DNA from: Escherichia phage vB_EcoM_LNA4
DNA: 64,000 bases
Strand: one strand, 5' to 3'
Sequence record: MZ311864.1
Shown: in pieces, positions 38,278 through 46,076 of the stretch
How the letters are laid out: each line of letters starts with the position of its first letter
Numbering within the stretch: position 1 is the stretch's first letter
The notes under the pieces: generated by a model
Seen by the model: the letters and a program-made list of their open reading frames with translations, nothing else
Told to the model about the DNA's origin: nothing
Database searches by the model: none
Translations under genes and position numbers: made by a program

Positions 38278-38723
38278 TATGCACGTACCTCTGTTACCTT
38301 CACGGTTGCTTCACCGCGAAGCTGGATGTTAGAACCATCATCGAGAGTGAGAATGATATCGTCGCCACTGATTTTGTGACCCTTAACGACATAATCTTTA
38401 CCCCACATCTCTACCTTATCGCCCATCACGACATTTTTCGCCTTGTAATCACCAGGCAGGCGATCTTCATCGCTAACCGCTTCGTAAAGGTCGCTAAAAG
38501 CCTGTGGAGACATTGCTGTGAACTGATCGCCCACCTTTACAATGTAATCGCCTGGAAACGCCTGAACGCCGTTAACGTCCATATTTCGGATATCCCGTGT
38601 ATGGATCTCAGAATCTTTCCATACCCCGGTCTCGATCCACTTGGTCACTTGACCAACCCCGGTGCTAGACCCATTGAATACGTGTGCTTCAACCTCTTGA
38701 GGTTTACGACTATAGAATCCCAT
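38277..38723 (-). CDS. hypothetical protein
   Basis: Start at MGFYSRK; TAATG overlap with ligase gene. Confidence 0.35.
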   Translation of the reverse strand: MGFYSRKPQEVEAHVFNGSSTGVGQVTKWIETGVWKDSEIHTRDIRNMDVNGVQAFPGDYIVKVGDQFTAMSPQAFSDLYEAVSDEDRLPGDYKAKNVVMGDKVEMWGKDYVVKGHKISGDDIILTLDDGSNIQLRGEATVKVTEVRA

Positions 38724-40027
38724 TAGTAGACTGGCTCCCATGTTAATGTGTTAAGTTCACGTACACTCTGCCCCACTGGGAACTGAGGTACACCATCATC
38801 AGTACGCGACTGGAATGTAAAGTTGATGAAACCACCAACCAACAGCAACATCTTCGCCTGAGAACGTTCTGCGTGTGTGCCTTTCATTTTACAGTTGAAT
38901 CGTGTTCCGTCCTGTTCTTCGCAAAGCAGAACACCTTCACCATTTTTGTCCTCTACAGAATCAAGGACTTTGGCCTCACCGTCCTGGAACAGCTTCCATT
39001 TCTGGAGATCAGTGGATCGCTGCCCGAACTCATATTTACCTTTGAAGTTTCGGATGATAACACCCTCAAACCCGGCTTCCATGTAATAACCGATAAAGCG
39101 TTTCACAGATGCTTCGTCTTTCACGAACTCGCCATGAACGATAGCAATCTTAGGAACATCAATCTCACATTCTACAGCTTCAGCCACAGCATTAAGATCA
39201 GCCATACGGGTTTGATCATGATCCTGAGAGTGCCAAGGACTGTGTGCATTCACTGGAATATCAAAGATATGATACTCAAGGTCAAGACTCGAATAACCGC
39301 TATAACGATCAACATCCTTCACAGGTTTATACGTTGAAACAGCCCACACGTTACCGTCAAAGTCTTTCCAGAGGTGTTCCCCTGCTGCAACCGCCTTGTT
39401 GTAACGCTTGATATCTGCTTGATAATCTTTTTCGATCTCAGCTTCAATCTGCTCAGGTGTACGCCACTTCTTAGCGAGAGCAACAATCTTCTGTAGACTC
39501 AGGCCATGAATATACAGTTCCCCATCGAACTTGTCAAACCCGGAATGCTCTGCAAGTTCTTTAACCTGTTGCAAAAGAGCACCCTGCACTGGATACGTCT
39601 TATTACCACGGCTATTGAACACTGGAATGCCGTCCTTGTCAAGCGTGACAAGAGCACGAACGCCGTCGAGCTTTGGCTGCACATAGGCAGGATAAACGAT
39701 AGCTGAAAATCGTTTGATCGCATCATGCGCCAGCATAGGAGAGAAGTTCTCTTCCGTCTGCAACTCTTCCTTAGTCTCACGATAACCTAAACGGACTTGC
39801 TTTTCCCATTTGGATCTTGCTTCAAGAACCGCTTGGAATACGGCAGTAGTCTCATTGGAACGGCCAATGTTTTTCATTTCACACTTGGTACGCTTTTGTT
39901 GAATCTTTCCGTTTTCCTTACCGAAAGAAACGACAACCTCATCACCTTCTGTGGTTACATTCCAAACTTGGTACGATCCGTCTTTGTTGAGAGCGTACAG
40001 TGTTGGTGTGTCTAAACTAATTGACAT
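38723..40027 (-). CDS. ATP-dependent DNA ligase
   Basis: Motif I KLDGVRAL, motif III FDGELY, motif IV EGVIIRN; 434 aa. Confidence 0.85.
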   Translation of the reverse strand: MSISLDTPTLYALNKDGSYQVWNVTTEGDEVVVSFGKENGKIQQKRTKCEMKNIGRSNETTAVFQAVLEARSKWEKQVRLGYRETKEELQTEENFSPMLAHDAIKRFSAIVYPAYVQPKLDGVRALVTLDKDGIPVFNSRGNKTYPVQGALLQQVKELAEHSGFDKFDGELYIHGLSLQKIVALAKKWRTPEQIEAEIEKDYQADIKRYNKAVAAGEHLWKDFDGNVWAVSTYKPVKDVDRYSGYSSLDLEYHIFDIPVNAHSPWHSQDHDQTRMADLNAVAEAVECEIDVPKIAIVHGEFVKDEASVKRFIGYYMEAGFEGVIIRNFKGKYEFGQRSTDLQKWKLFQDGEAKVLDSVEDKNGEGVLLCEEQDGTRFNCKMKGTHAERSQAKMLLLVGGFINFTFQSRTDDGVPQFPVGQSVRELNTLTWEPVY

Positions 40028-40803
40028 TATTTCTCCTTCTTCTGTAAAGGCGTTTTTCCTTCAAGGTGGTCTTCAACCATCTTGATTAAACCGGGATTGC
40101 TGAAAGCATCAACAGCACCTGTACGATAAACGATAACACCCGCATCTTCATACATCAACTGCTCATCATAGCGAACACCGGGGTTAACAACCACCACCTT
40201 TGTTCCTCTCATGACAGCAGGGAAAAGTTCCCAGTTGAAGTTGATCACTGTGTTTGAACATCCAACCACAATCACCATATCCTCAGATGTCAAGCTGTCC
40301 AAGGTTGAGTATAGCTGCCCGTATGCAGGCGCAGTTTCACCAAAAAAGATAACGTTAGGCTTACACCAACCATAATCATCTGGGTCAATCTGCTCATAAC
40401 CAACATCAATGATCTTTTTAGGTGATCCAGCCTCAGTCTCAATCACCAACTCTTTCAGATAACCATGAATATAAAGCGTATCTTCTTTAGGAACACCTGC
40501 ACGTTCCAATAGATCATCAACGTTAGTTGTCAAGTTAATAACCTGGTTCGGATAGTTTTTATACCACTCTGCCACACGCATATGTGCAGCATTAGGATGC
40601 ACAGTTTGCAGTTCTGCACGACGCTTGTTATAAAAGGTGTGCGTCTTATGGTAAAAATTACCACGAAAGGCATGAATGTTGCAGACCTCTTCAAGGTCAT
40701 ACTCATCCCACAAGGCCTTACCGGAGTCGGTGTCAGTACGGAATGTACGAACACCGCTCTCAGCAGAGAAACCAGCACCACTAATTACATATAAACGCCT
40801 CAT
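40027..40803 (-). CDS. Sir2-family NAD-dependent deacylase/NAD-utilising enzyme
   Basis: GAGFSAESGVRTFR, TTNVDDLLERAG, IHGYL and VIFFGE sirtuin motifs; no obvious Zn-ribbon Cys4. Confidence 0.75.
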   Translation of the reverse strand: MRRLYVISGAGFSAESGVRTFRTDTDSGKALWDEYDLEEVCNIHAFRGNFYHKTHTFYNKRRAELQTVHPNAAHMRVAEWYKNYPNQVINLTTNVDDLLERAGVPKEDTLYIHGYLKELVIETEAGSPKKIIDVGYEQIDPDDYGWCKPNVIFFGETAPAYGQLYSTLDSLTSEDMVIVVGCSNTVINFNWELFPAVMRGTKVVVVNPGVRYDEQLMYEDAGVIVYRTGAVDAFSNPGLIKMVEDHLEGKTPLQKKEK

Positions 40804-42474: not shown

Positions 42475-43071
42475 TTATCCGTGATCAGCAGTGTAAATTG
42501 GTTTAGCAAGGCACATCAGAACAGCTTCACGCATCGTCAAAGGACGACCATGCACATCCCAACCCACATCAAGAATACGTCCACCAGGGGCCGTGTAGGA
42601 GCCGTGGCTGTGACCGTGCAGCATTACCGACCCGTGGTGAGCTTTATTCCATGATGCAAACGGATAGTGGGACATACACACCTTCACCTTTTCTTTCCCG
42701 GTGCTGAACTCAATTTCCTTATAGTCCACGACTTCATGACCAAACTCACGGAAGATACGTTTTGTCTGATGGTTGTCATGATTACCACCAACCAGAATGA
42801 TCTTCCCATTGATACGGCTCAGGATATCACGAACTTTTGGCTCAACTTGCTTACCATAGGCAATAACGAAATCACCAAGGTGTGCCACCACATCGTCAGG
42901 CTTGACGTTTTTGTTCCACGTCTTAACCATGTCATCGTTCATTTTGACAACGGAGGCTGAGTCTTCTTTCGGACCATACAGGTTCTTACGGAACTTATCA
43001 CACGATGGGAAACCAAGAATGTTGGTGTGCCACCAGTGAGTGTCTGACGTGACGTGATCAATTTGAATCAT
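42475..43071 (-). CDS. calcineurin-like metallophosphoesterase (Ser/Thr phosphatase-like)
   Basis: GDFVIAYG, GGNHD and GHSHG metal-binding motifs. Confidence 0.7.
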   Translation of the reverse strand: MIQIDHVTSDTHWWHTNILGFPSCDKFRKNLYGPKEDSASVVKMNDDMVKTWNKNVKPDDVVAHLGDFVIAYGKQVEPKVRDILSRINGKIILVGGNHDNHQTKRIFREFGHEVVDYKEIEFSTGKEKVKVCMSHYPFASWNKAHHGSVMLHGHSHGSYTAPGGRILDVGWDVHGRPLTMREAVLMCLAKPIYTADHG

Positions 43072-43352
43072 TTCTTTTTCCTTTTTGTTGTTTTCTTATA
43101 CAAACCTAAAGCCGCATTCTCTTTAGCGCAGGTGAGGACCTTTTCGATCTTGCGACGATCAACCTCCGGCATATTAAGCTCCCACCAACCCATCCAATAG
43201 ATCTGGTCTTTGGTCAGGGGTTCTGCCATAGGATCTTCTTCTTGTGCATTAAGCCTTGCGATGGCCTCTTTTATCACAGACACATCTGTTGTAAAAACAA
43301 ACGCTTCTGTATCGAACTTGTCTTTAACTGGCTTCTTAATATCTTTTTTCAT
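43068..43352 (-). CDS. hypothetical protein
   Basis: 94-aa ORF. Confidence 0.35.
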   Translation of the reverse strand: MKKDIKKPVKDKFDTEAFVFTTDVSVIKEAIARLNAQEEDPMAEPLTKDQIYWMGWWELNMPEVDRRKIEKVLTCAKENAALGLYKKTTKRKKK

Positions 43353-43639
43353 TTTATCTCCGTAGCCGGGTAAGCATAGAGGATTCCGTCACGAATGTTA
43401 CGGTTGTGCTGCCACACAATTAGCTTCATGCACACCAAATTAACTACATGACGATCACCATGAATGTAGACACTGGAGTCCATCCATGTCTTACCCCAGC
43501 CAACACGACTGTCTAGATACAGCTTAACACCATATCTCTTCTCCGCTGCACTCATAATCTCCAAGAGGGCTTCATAAGCCTCTTTGTAGATTGAGTTATC
43601 GCAGGTAATGCTCTTCATATCCAAATTAACCCTCCACAA
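43349..43639 (-). CDS. hypothetical protein
   Basis: 96-aa ORF. Confidence 0.35.
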   Translation of the reverse strand: MWRVNLDMKSITCDNSIYKEAYEALLEIMSAAEKRYGVKLYLDSRVGWGKTWMDSSVYIHGDRHVVNLVCMKLIVWQHNRNIRDGILYAYPATEIK

Positions 43640-43735
43640 TAGCCCTCAGAGCCTCTGAGCGGCCCTGTATTGAATTAAATGGGTGTAGGGAACCCAAGTG
43701 TACCACCACACCATTAAAACCTCTTAAAACGCCTC

Positions 43736-44080
43736 TCAGAGCGTTATACGAATCTCACTGAGATCCACCACACAATTATTACTCTCGATATGTTCCACTG
43801 TCAAGTCCTTATACCACACAACAGTGACATTTCTTCGTCTTAGACGACTACGTAATGACGTGAGGTAGTCTCCGAACACTTCCTGTTCAGACTTACCATC
43901 TGGTAAAACTACACACACATTTTGTTCTCTCATTGATTCATGAAACACATCACGAATCAACATGAGTCTTGACTTCTCCTCGTCAGTCTGTTCAGCTTTA
44001 CGACGAGGTTTACCACTCACAGTCTTCGACTGACCACACACCATATCACCAATATCTTTTGTTTGTTTACTTGACAACAT
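43736..44080 (-). CDS. hypothetical protein (first gene of leftward unit)
   Basis: Start at MLSSKQ with AAGGAGA RBS. Confidence 0.4.
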   Translation of the reverse strand: MLSSKQTKDIGDMVCGQSKTVSGKPRRKAEQTDEEKSRLMLIRDVFHESMREQNVCVVLPDGKSEQEVFGDYLTSLRSRLRRRNVTVVWYKDLTVEHIESNNCVVDLSEIRITL

Positions 44081-44149
44081 TACAATCTCCTTTAACAATA
44101 CGAGCATTCTACATGAACAAAATCTGAAGTCAACCCCTTGACAGCACAT

Positions 44150-44358
44150 TCCTGTTCATTCATACTGCGGTTCATCAAGTGAACGACTCTTTGATAGTAG
44201 AACATATAGATCATGCTAAAAGATCTTGTTTTTAGATCTTATGTTTTATTGTTTTTATAAAAGAGTATTGTTTTATTTATTTTATATAGTATTTATTTCT
44301 GTTATCAATTTGAGACTAGGCTTAGTGTCAATTTGAGACTAAGCTATGGAGGAGAGAC
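44150..44358. promoter_or_regulatory. AT-rich divergent control region with direct repeats and palindrome
   Basis: Strand switch; palindrome AAGATCTTGTTTTTAGATCTT; two copies of TCAATTTGAGACTA(G/A)GCT 23 bp apart just upstream of first plus-strand gene. Confidence 0.55.
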
Positions 44359-44676
44359 ATGGGGTACATCGCGTCAGGTAAGCACATCTACGGTAACTTC
44401 GAACTGAAGTTGCTGTCGGTGACCTGCGCCTCGTCCAACGACAAGATTGTGTACCTCTACATGCGTCATCAGTATCACTACTTCAAGTCTCTCCGGAAAA
44501 CGTACCATGAGTCGCTTGACAGTATTGCTGATGCCACAGGATTATCGAGGGCAACTGTTGCCAGGTGTGTGAGCAACCTTGAAAAGATAAAGTGGTTGAC
44601 AAAGGACACAACACGCACCAATATGGGCCACAACAAAACGATTTACGAAATTCACAATTGGACAGAGGAGAAATAA
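44359..44676 (+). CDS. helix-turn-helix DNA-binding protein
   Basis: SIADATGLSRATVARCVSNLE HTH segment; GGAGGA RBS. Confidence 0.5.
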   Translation: MGYIASGKHIYGNFELKLLSVTCASSNDKIVYLYMRHQYHYFKSLRKTYHESLDSIADATGLSRATVARCVSNLEKIKWLTKDTTRTNMGHNKTIYEIHNWTEEK

Positions 44677-44677
44677 A

Positions 44678-45490
44678 ATGAGTATTGAATTACGTTTGAA
44701 CAAACTGGTTGTTCCTGTAGACCACTTCACCTTTAAGGGTGGTGAGGAACAGGTCAAAATTGACCTAAAACACGCACCAAAAGGCGGTATTGGTTTCGTA
44801 GATATCACTGCCAAAATCAAAAATTCAACTGATGTCATGGCACTGGCTATGTTGGTGGATGCGTGTTCCCGTTTGGAAGGATTGCATAACCACGCAGAGT
44901 TCACCCTGCACCTTCCATACATCCCGTATGCACGTCAAGACCGTGTAATGAACCCAGGTGAAGCGTTATCTATTAAGGTTTTCGCAAACATTGTCAACTC
45001 GCTTGGTTTCGACACGGTTATCGTTGATGACCCGCACAGCGATGTCTCTGCTGCACTGCTCAATAACGTCCGTATCCGTGGTCAGGATGTTCTTATTTCC
45101 GAGATGAAAGATCTTGGCAACTCCACATTGCATAGCAACTCTTTGGTTGTGGTAGCACCTGATGCGGGTGCTCGCAAGAAAGCCCATAAGGTTGCTGACC
45201 GATTCAGTCTTCCTCTTGTTGAGGCTGGTAAAGTACGTGATTTGCAGACCAACGAAATCACTGGTACTGCGGTGTTCGGAGATGTTGAAGGTAAAGTGTG
45301 TATGATTGTTGATGATATCTGCGACGGTGGTCGTACATTCATCGCCCTTGCACAGGCCCTGAAAGAAAACGGTGCGAAACGTGTTATCCTGTACGTTACT
45401 CACGGTATCTTTTCTTTCGGTAAACAGGTCATCCTCGATGGTGGGGTTGATGAAATCTATGCGTATCATGACTGGACGGAGAATTTTTAA
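44678..45490 (+). CDS. prs: ribose-phosphate pyrophosphokinase-family protein (Prs-like)
   Basis: YARQDR, DDPHSD and PRPP-binding loop VDDICDGGRT motifs; 270 aa. Confidence 0.75.
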   Translation: MSIELRLNKLVVPVDHFTFKGGEEQVKIDLKHAPKGGIGFVDITAKIKNSTDVMALAMLVDACSRLEGLHNHAEFTLHLPYIPYARQDRVMNPGEALSIKVFANIVNSLGFDTVIVDDPHSDVSAALLNNVRIRGQDVLISEMKDLGNSTLHSNSLVVVAPDAGARKKAHKVADRFSLPLVEAGKVRDLQTNEITGTAVFGDVEGKVCMIVDDICDGGRTFIALAQALKENGAKRVILYVTHGIFSFGKQVILDGGVDEIYAYHDWTENF

Positions 45491-46023
45491 TGACTGAATC
45501 AACAAGTTTTATTTTTGTTGTCGATACAGATTCCTATGCTGGTAATTTTGAGCGTGACATGTGCGCTCATATCACCGGGCAGATTGGTGAATGCGGTGTT
45601 GGTGCAGAGTACCGCCCCGATATTGAAGACCTAAAAGAAGACCATTACGATTTTGATCTCGAAAAAATCTGTGAGTGGTTAGAAAATAATGTTCTCCAGG
45701 TTCCAGATGAACACGCCTGCTATCGCCCATGTGCGATTTACCCAACACCGGGGCGTACAAACAACGGCGGTGGTGTGCATTCTGATGTGACCGCAAATAA
45801 TCCATTCAAGTGGCCTGCATACGAAAGTGTAGCTATCTACATCCGTGAAGAACCACCTGAAGATGTGGTACGTTTCATGGTCATCCGTGCTAACACTTTC
45901 TATATTCGTGCGACCAAGTGGTCACCAGCAAAAGAAATCAAGGTAAAAGGTTGCAGATTGGTTAAAGAAACGACAACTGTGAAAACAGAATCGAAATCTT
46001 TAGACTTTTCACTTGACATCTAA
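45490..46023 (+). CDS. hypothetical protein within NAD operon
   Basis: 177-aa ORF with ATGA overlap to Prs-like gene; Cys/His-containing, no recognisable motif. Confidence 0.5.
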   Translation: MTESTSFIFVVDTDSYAGNFERDMCAHITGQIGECGVGAEYRPDIEDLKEDHYDFDLEKICEWLENNVLQVPDEHACYRPCAIYPTPGRTNNGGGVHSDVTANNPFKWPAYESVAIYIREEPPEDVVRFMVIRANTFYIRATKWSPAKEIKVKGCRLVKETTTVKTESKSLDFSLDI

Positions 46024-46076
46024 ACCAAACGGGGTGTAGAATCACCCCATCAAAACACACAAAGGAGAAACAAAAC

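Follow-up and report, generated by a model that had tools for sequence, protein, structure and literature searches.

What is the function of the DNA that separates the leftward from the rightward genes of an rV5-like phage? We addressed this question with a 64,000-nt stretch of Escherichia phage vB_EcoM_LNA4 (MZ311864.1), referred to here in its full length as the window, in which the genes flanking a noncoding hub at about 44 kb point away from each other and the first rightward gene encodes a 105-amino-acid (105-aa) winged-helix protein. The hub contains two direct repeats with a 23-bp period, a conserved AT-rich block, a cluster of GATC boxes, and two sigma70-like promoters. It is a real, conserved regulatory region and a fairly ordinary kind of element. 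Comparison with related phages leads us to favor, with somewhat better than even confidence, the reading that the two repeats form a paired operator of the adjacent winged-helix protein and control the rightward transcription unit, which opens with genes resembling those of a NAD+-reconstitution pathway.

Two direct repeats abut the ribosome-binding site of the winged-helix gene

A first-pass annotation made from the sequence alone had drawn a gene-free segment of about 210 bp (44150-44358). The actual noncoding segment is 278 bp long (44081-44358), since the left gene starts with an ATG at 44080, not at 44149; this start has its own AGGAG and matches the 345-bp gene GAP31_178 of Cronobacter phage vB_CsaM_GAP31. 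The two 18-bp direct repeats reported in the segment were confirmed: TCAATTTGAGACTAGGCT lies at 44305-44322 and TCAATTTGAGACTAAGCT at 44328-44345, they are identical at 17 of 18 positions, and they are spaced 23 bp from start to start. None of 300 shuffles of the intergenic sequence reached 17/18 (mean best match, 12.1; maximum, 15). Written as 23-bp units on the plus strand, repeat 1 occupies 44303-44325 (core TCAATTTGAGACTAGGC, 44305-44321) and repeat 2 occupies 44326-44348 (core TCAATTTGAGACTAAGC, 44328-44344), the latter abutting the Shine-Dalgarno sequence GGAGG (44348-44352) of the winged-helix gene (44359-44676, plus strand), whose product is the proposed binder of the repeats. Thus, the repeats do end at the ribosome-binding site (RBS), as had been stated: the 18-bp form of repeat 2 stops 2 nt short of GGAGG, and the ATG follows at 44359.

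A search for the 14-bp core detected no other exact copy in the window, indicating that the motif is locus specific. Similarly, when the rest of the window and the other 85 kb of GAP31 were scanned with a weight matrix constructed from 13 repeat variants, no comparable plus-strand site was found, and the 24-bp AT-rich block described below has no second copy in the same sequences. We therefore rejected the idea that either the repeats or the AT block represents a general phage promoter motif.

One feature of repeat 2 is peculiar to the window phage. It reads ACTAAGC where relatives have TATAGGC or CATAGGC, and these substitutions create a near-perfect 25-bp palindrome, GCTTAGTGTCAA-T-TTGAGACTAAGC, at 44320-44344, while making the two repeats more alike (16/17). 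The substitutions may reflect gene conversion between the copies.

The repeats are conserved and change in parallel

In megablast searches with positions 43000 to 46000, Enterobacter phage EC152 matched with 96.9% identity over the full length, GAP31 with 96.3%, and Escherichia phage 4MG with 85%, and many other Vequintavirinae (Seunavirus and Mydovirus) matched as well; by these matches, the window phage is a member of the genus Seunavirus and is rV5-like (Vequintavirinae). The close relatives obtained from word-indexed searches numbered only 9 to 11, and an IMG/VR scan yielded three near-identical loci. We aligned the hubs of 9 and then 12 genomes, including metagenomic loci, and a more divergent locus, L029, was added as the 13th locus of the window type. 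The winged-helix proteins of the metagenomic loci are 61 to 65% identical to that of the window by alignment (62 to 65% by BLASTP), and synteny is the same in all of the aligned genomes.

All 13 window-type loci have both copies of the repeat, spaced at the same 23 bp, so the motif is indeed conserved in related phages. Even L029 carries CCATTTTGACACTAGGG and CCAAAATGATACTAGGC. The pattern CA-N3-TGA-N3-T-N-GG(C) is nearly invariant across the copies and strictly so in copy 1. Relative to the window, the AT block is 66 to 97% identical and the repeats are 55 to 91% identical, compared with 39 to 61% for third codon positions of the flanking genes (6 of 7 comparisons). The noncoding blocks are thus more conserved than third codon positions, which argues that the AT block and the repeats are under purifying selection.

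The two copies also change together. In locus L016, both copies read CCAAAATGAACCTTGG(A/C); they match each other at 16 of 17 positions and match the copies of other genomes at a mean of 9.6 of 17. In L017, GAG is changed to GAT in both copies. Unit position 12 takes three states among the genomes, yet within a genome the two copies always agree there (12 of 12). The L016 protein (P0007) is altered in its predicted recognition helix (GIARSTLKRSLSRL versus GLSRATVARCVSNL). L016, which has the most divergent repeat set, is also the only locus in which each unit (695-740) is a clear dyad, GTCCAA-N8-TTGGAC, which hints that the repeat sites may be degenerate dyads bound by dimers.

Sister phages carry a different protein together with different sites

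PVP-SE1, FENT2, and K23PH08C2 match the window only up to ~44257-44303. The left half of the hub, with its promoters and GATC boxes, is common to PVP-SE1, FENT2, KB57, K23PH08C2, and Hena1, and the switch to a different sequence occurs at ~44257. The protein encoded beyond the switch in PVP-SE1, gp098 (118 aa), is a distant relative of the window protein (30% identity; E, 3e-4) with weak HTH_36 and DnaD-like matches. The sites differ as well. Window-type sites have the form TCAATTTGAG..TAGGC; the gp098-type module of PVP-SE1, FENT2, and K23PH08C2 has three copies of ATTCC-N6-GGGAATAATTAG. Two of these, in tandem at a 24-bp period, immediately precede a strong TTGACA-N17-TACATT promoter, and the third lies between its -10 element and the RBS. 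Hena1 has TATACCCGAnnGGGAATAATTAGG three times, Av-05 has TGTCCCC-N5-GGGGACA twice, ahead of TTGACA-N17-TAGCAT, and the rV5-like phage W70 has ATGCC-N6-GGCAT ahead of TTGACA-N16-TAAGAT, with no Prs gene downstream. Across the genera sampled, the gene that opens the rightward block at this strand switch always encodes a small protein of the winged-helix type and is preceded by repeats that are specific to the protein type.

Each of three genera includes both alleles: in Seunavirus, GAP31, 4MG, and EC152 are of the window type and PVP-SE1 and FENT2 are of the gp098 type; in Mydovirus, Mydo and BIS47 are of the window type and KB57 and K23PH08C2 are of the gp098 type; and in Henunavirus, pEp_SNUABM_01 is of the window type and Hena1 is of the gp098 type. 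Sites and protein are therefore exchanged as one unit, and we regard this co-exchange as the strongest nonexperimental argument that the adjacent protein would be the binder of the repeats. The distribution implies repeated horizontal replacement, like that of lambdoid immunity regions. The analysis thus shows that the elements are real, are under purifying selection, occur only once in the genome, and both vary and transfer together with the protein gene.

The slot that holds the alleles lies between the hub and the Prs-like gene (44257-44676 in the window; 2560-3072 in L009; also L027 and L026). In PVP-SE1 (gp097; L009, 3081-3641) and FENT2 (L010, 3072-3641), a gene encoding a winged helix-turn-helix (wHTH) domain fused to a T5orf172 (GIY-YIG-like) nuclease lies between the regulator and the Prs-like gene. 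This gene is absent in KB57 and Hena1 and looks like an inserted homing-endonuclease-type gene.

Promoters, GATC boxes, and the AT-rich block

The segment had been described as a divergent promoter hub. Back-to-back sigma70-like promoters are present and, in all relatives, conserved, but they lie mostly to the left of the region so described (44106-44166). The leftward promoter, P_L (44106-44133, minus strand), consists of TTGACT (44133-44128), N16, and TAGAAT (44111-44106), and the rightward promoter, P_R (44138-44166, plus strand), consists of TTGACA, N17, and CATACT; it is their -35 elements that stand back to back. The P_L columns GTCAAC and ATTCTAC are conserved in hub alignments A1 and A2, and the TTGAC of P_R is invariant in A2. 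We scanned 13 related hubs with a simple sigma70 matrix, whose scores are approximate. P_R was the top candidate in nine hubs (all eight of the window type and FENT2), ranked second in PVP-SE1 and Av-05, and fell outside the top five in W70 and CR3. The leader from P_R to the winged-helix gene would be ~190 nt. The authors of the rV5 genome study looked for a bidirectional promoter region where the strands switch in that phage but did not locate one, and they suspected that late promoters are noncanonical (PMC3606486).

The cassette types differ in what lies closer to the gene. Every gp098-type cassette has, in addition, a proximal promoter of equal strength 29 to 52 nt upstream of the start codon, whereas the only proximal candidate in window-type cassettes is a weak TTTATA-N17/18-TATAGT, found in only two relatives. 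The gp098-type sites flank a strong TTGACA-N17 promoter, and the window-type sites have only the distal P_R and the weak TATAGT.

The palindrome AAGATCTTGTTTTTAGATCTT, to which the first-pass annotation had drawn attention, is present at 44220-44240. It is formed by the last two of three WAGATCWT boxes (44207-44240; GATC at 44209, 44222, and 44235, 13 bp apart). However, its structure is not conserved: SPLA5a and Erwinia-type relatives lack the second arm, and only the AAAAGATCTT box is kept. This box and the T-run are conserved across window-type loci, PVP-SE1, FENT2, KB57, and W70, with close variants in Av-05, CR3, and Hena1. More broadly, two to five WAAGATCW boxes, with the core AAAAGATCTT followed by a T-run, are the most widely conserved hub element across the Vequintavirinae (window, 44207-44240; L024, 1227-1290; L025, 1216-1245; L023, 1296-1372; L029, 2364-2375), and the distance of the cluster from P_R varies. 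As a statistical anomaly, the cluster was discarded, since there are 309 GATC sites per 64 kb and five triplets within 40 bp, so that it is not significant alone; what is notable is its conservation across genera. Dam or SeqA sensitivity and a protein site are both possibilities for the boxes. The RNA fold of the palindrome is weak (-7.7 kcal/mol; z, -1.3). An intrinsic terminator was rejected on this ground, on the nonconserved second arm, and because a terminator scan did not call it.

The segment also holds DNA that had been called a run of about 90 bp of near-pure AT. It is AT rich without being pure AT: G+C content is 14.8% over 44217-44304 and 12% over 44242-44299. The 90 bp at 44226-44315, which are T rich on the plus strand, are the most AT-rich 90 bp of the window (15.6% G+C; the next lowest value is 24.4%). 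Within them, the AT block ATTTATTT-TATATAGT-ATTTATTT (44275-44298, plus strand) is conserved, with the invariant positions TTTA.TT....TAGT.TTTA.TT. Of the six loci with the other cassette type that we read, four (PVP-SE1, FENT2, Av-05, and W70) also have a TAGTATT box ahead of their first repeat, and CR3 lacks it. It is possible that the AT block contains a weak -10 element (TATAGT or TAGTAT).

The adjacent protein has a generic winged-helix fold

In Pfam, the 105-aa protein matched DUF6945, HTH_36, wHTH-PRTase_assc, and Phage_rep_O below threshold, and only HTH_IclR scored above its cutoff (25.0 versus 22). The best match in PHROGs was phrog_8102, “replication initiation protein” (E, 2e-36), covering only positions 9 to 113 of a 337-position profile; lambda-O-like and DnaD-like families matched more weakly. 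In the AlphaFold model (pLDDT, 80), the protein folds as a canonical winged helix, with four helices and a beta hairpin. Its structural neighbors in a Foldseek comparison with the PDB were winged-helix proteins of a generic kind, for the most part MarR, ArsR, and CodY regulators and TFE-alpha, and a profile search of PDB sequences gave weak matches only. As modeled, the fold cannot tell a regulator from an initiator. In a hidden Markov model search of 1.8 billion representatives, there were 196 matches at an E value of ≤1e-3, two clusters below 1e-30, and most of the matches were 100 to 200 aa long; judged by these matches, the protein belongs to a narrow, single-domain family.

Two labels attached to this gene deserve comment. 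The “wHTH-PRTase associated” family (PF24409) was rejected, since the match is below threshold (22.3 versus a cutoff of 27) and the homologues in W70 and L029 have no downstream phosphoribosyltransferase gene. The association is therefore with the strand switch and not with Prs. We found no useful literature on wHTH-PRTase. RefSeq labels both the 105-aa protein (GAP31_179) and the 98-aa GAP31_035 (L001 and L021) as “replication initiation protein.” For the 105-aa protein, this label looks overspecific, since what supports it is a PHROG match that extends over no more than the N-terminal third of the profile, and we caution against its use for this gene.

A proposed paired operator weighed against an origin and other explanations

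In the reading that we favor, the hub would be a conserved control region between the leftward and rightward blocks, from which two sigma70-type promoters would fire outward. Once the winged-helix protein had been made, two protein units (monomers or dimers, probably cooperative) would occupy the repeats, and their occupancy would throttle transcription into the winged-helix gene, the NAD+-reconstitution pair, the small genes, and, farther on, the structural genes. The bound protein would either form a roadblock for polymerase that has started at P_R or occlude a weak start in the AT block. Binding of the protein to the repeats, repression as the sign of the effect, and the promoter used are what we infer. 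The locus has the attributes of an operator in an adjacent DNA-binding protein, in nonrandom, conserved, locus-specific sites, and in co-variation of site and protein. The earlier suggestion of operator sites at the hub thus holds in that the repeats, conserved beyond synonymous sites, changed in parallel, and swapped with the gene, behave as a cognate site; it is not supported to the extent that no good promoter adjoins the repeats here. As in autoregulated helix-turn-helix (HTH) and winged-helix repressors, such as lambda cI/Cro at OR and the MarR family, the regulator gene adjoins repeated sites in a divergent promoter region, with two or three sites ~23 to 25 bp apart. The sites of the sister cassettes, as in repressor systems, flank a sigma70 promoter (upstream of the -35 element and between the -10 element and the RBS), and related phages exchange the protein jointly with the site sequence, as specificity types, much as in immunity regions. 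Unlike lambda, the phage is virulent and has no lysogeny switch, and unlike those repressors, the protein belongs to a family with only two clusters below an E value of 1e-30 among the 1.8 billion representatives.

Several points weigh against the operator reading. The window-type sites are direct repeats whose internal dyad is weak, unlike typical dimeric wHTH operators. They lie between the AT-rich block and the RBS without a recognizable promoter of their own; the matrix scan found no good sigma70 promoter beside the repeats in the window-type cassette, and the distal P_R is ~140 bp upstream. This probably places the repeats either within the leader transcribed from P_R or at ~+8 to +50 relative to a weak start downstream of the conserved TATAGT. 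The geometry of regulation is thus uncertain for the window-type allele, and this is the main weakness of the operator model there. A simple operator model also leaves the strongly conserved, extremely AT-rich block unexplained. The nearest PHROG sequence relatives of the protein are labeled replication initiators, and Foldseek also matches RepA_N N-terminal domains and RepA_N-DNA complexes (5kbj and 4pql), as well as 4ro3. The case for co-variation of protein and site comes chiefly from a single clear locus (L016), together with the cassette swaps, and we found no transcript-start data for Vequintavirinae in the literature.

The same elements could instead be read as an iteron-type replication origin, a proposal that we consider doubtful. 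The GATC boxes and the AT-rich stretch would be the unwinding region, and the winged-helix protein, as a minimal origin-binding protein, would bind the repeats as its iterons; the phage primase-helicase would be loaded at the hub, perhaps aided by P_R transcription through R-loop priming, which is known from the origins of T4 and T7. Such an origin would be compatible with autoregulation, as in P1 oriR. The order of the elements (GATC cluster, most AT-rich 90 bp, 23-bp direct repeats, and wHTH gene) recalls P1 oriR and iteron plasmids, and features of this kind are also shared with F, pSC101, lambda ori/O, RepA_N plasmids, and the PLE satellite. A 23-bp period is typical of iterons. Yet there are only two repeats, with no further copy nearby or elsewhere in the weight-matrix scan, whereas known iteron origins have three to seven, and no DnaA box (TTWTNCACA with ≤1 mismatch) occurs between 43434 and 45297, within ~900 bp of the hub. 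The stretch at 44226-44315 has the AT richness expected of an unwinding element, but the AT block is conserved in sequence, beyond composition, which a pure unwinding element would not need. The protein has distant sequence and fold similarity to the N-terminal domains of initiators, phrog_8102 being its best match, with the lambda-O-like and DnaD-like matches weaker and RepA_N-DNA complexes among its structural neighbors; it is, however, a bare DNA-binding domain with no effector domain, and the majority of its distant homologues are likewise 100 to 200 aa long. The repeats abut the expression signals of the gene, as they do where RepA represses its own promoter. The sites of the sister cassettes are inverted repeats that converge on an A/T tract, as described for RepA_N iterons (PMC7145576); on the other hand, they flank a strong promoter in classic operator positions. 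The cumulative GC-skew minimum falls at the hub, but the skew switch coincides with the transcription switch and is thus confounded; the rV5 authors noted the same coincidence and failed to define an origin (PMC3606486). Replication genes are ~60 kb away, and GATC triplets within 40 bp occur five times in the window. Two head-to-tail 13-mers at the edge of the AT-rich stretch, GATCTTGTTTTTA and GATCTTATGTTTT (44222-44247), resemble the 13-mers of Escherichia coli oriC, with 2 and 1 mismatches to the consensus GATCTnTTnTTTT. Unlike the case of oriC, the resemblance arises as a by-product of the AGATCTT palindrome, several relatives lack the second 13-mer, the window has 43 other single matches with ≤2 mismatches, and DnaA boxes are lacking nearby. 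The fuller proposal, that the hub is the replication origin of rV5-like phages in the manner of P1 oriR, with Dam/SeqA-sensitive GATC boxes, an unwinding element, two iterons, and an autoregulating single-domain winged-helix binder in alleles exchangeable within genera, seems to us less likely still.

Another explanation takes the winged-helix gene to be merely linked: the repeats and the AT block would bind a host nucleoid protein (IHF, Fis, or H-NS) or another phage factor or would constitute a phage-specific promoter of an unconventional kind. Cassettes with different wHTH proteins have the AT block and the TAGTATT box in common, so that these elements at least are not protein specific, TATAGT is conserved without a sigma70 -35 element, and the suspicion of noncanonical late promoters in the rV5 study (PMC3606486) would agree with such a promoter. 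The repeats do not follow this pattern. Unlike the AT block, they switch sequence whenever the adjacent protein type switches, which makes another binder unlikely for them; the motif occurs once per genome and hence defines no general promoter class, and by eye the repeats do not fit the IHF consensus. For the AT block and the TAGTATT box, this explanation is possible; for the locus as a whole, we judge it improbable. Finally, if P_R is used, the whole region would be a ~190-nt leader, which could in principle hold a cis-acting RNA element (a riboswitch, an attenuator, or a translational operator) controlling the NAD+-related operon; the palindrome would then serve as a terminator, and the repeats would fold into an RNA structure close to the RBS. 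A U-rich run does follow the palindrome, and repeat 2 with the inter-repeat spacer forms a 12-bp near-perfect inverted repeat in the window phage only; however, this stem is not kept in GAP31, and the hairpin at the palindrome lacks its second arm in SPLA5a and Erwinia-type phages. Folding energies are like those of shuffles (z, -1.3, -1.2, -1.9, and +0.35), the RNAalifold consensus is only -3.65 kcal/mol with an unfavorable covariation term (+0.22), and there was no relevant Rfam match even at an E value of ≤10. With Rfam, single-sequence folds, and RNAalifold all without support, a known cis-regulatory RNA was rejected, and we regard control by any such RNA element as highly improbable.

Gene neighborhood and annotation of the hub

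Gene order around the hub is the same in annotated relatives. On the leftward side, their annotation lists small genes without assigned function, a phosphoesterase, and an RNA ligase. The first leftward gene of the window (43736-44080, minus strand; 114 aa) belongs to phrog_4868. On the rightward side, the relatives' annotation lists the 105-aa HTH protein, a “ribose-phosphate pyrophosphokinase,” an open reading frame (ORF) without assigned function, and a “nicotinamide phosphoribosyltransferase.” In the window, these downstream genes form part of the same transcription unit (44678-47762, plus strand): the Prs-like gene (44678-45490), the intervening ORF (45490-46023; 177 aa, with no Pfam match), and the NAMPT-like gene (46077-47762). 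The strand switch itself is as the first-pass annotation had it near the hub, where it coincides with the cumulative GC-skew minimum at ~44 kb, although its statement that all upstream genes run leftward was slightly too strong, given that GAP31_088, GAP31_102, and GAP31_103 run rightward far upstream.

By annotation, the Prs-like and NAMPT-like pair resembles Adps and Namat, which make up the published phage NAD+-reconstitution pathway NARP1 (bioRxiv 10.1101/2024.02.11.579819). The 177-aa ORF, likened to Bacillus phage G gp332 in a note to the GAP31 record, is absent in Mydo and KB57, and the “two-gene” NARP1 operon is therefore interrupted in the window phage. About 4 kb from the hub on the leftward side, the translations of 40027-40803 and 38723-40027 look, by eye, like a Sir2-type deacetylase and an ATP-dependent DNA ligase, and GAP31 also has PnuC-like and NadR-like genes (L022). 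Together, these genes point to a heavy investment of these phages in NAD+ metabolism.

Some deposited annotation of the region should be used with care. In K23PH08C2 (OY757067.1; L011), the features around the hub are out of register with the sequence, such that “DNA ligase” and “primase/helicase” overlie the hub and small genes, and many features are flagged as pseudogenes. In several genomes, short “hypothetical protein” ORFs are annotated inside the AT-rich hub (L005, 1258-1431; L008, 1240-1431; L003, 1268-1357). Their strand and frame vary between records, and they are probably spurious.

Implications for the Vequintavirinae

The present analysis locates the bidirectional promoter region that was sought in the rV5 genome paper. 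In every Vequintavirinae genus examined, the rightward block begins with a small winged-helix protein that comes with its own type of repeats, and there are at least two interchangeable alleles of this arrangement. To date, the only form in which NARP1 has been described is an operon of two genes (bioRxiv 10.1101/2024.02.11.579819). In many of these phages, the unit starts with a NARP1-like pair, which makes the element a candidate control point for an antidefense function. Vequintavirinae are used in phage therapy and biocontrol, and the element would offer a defined promoter-operator pair for their engineering.

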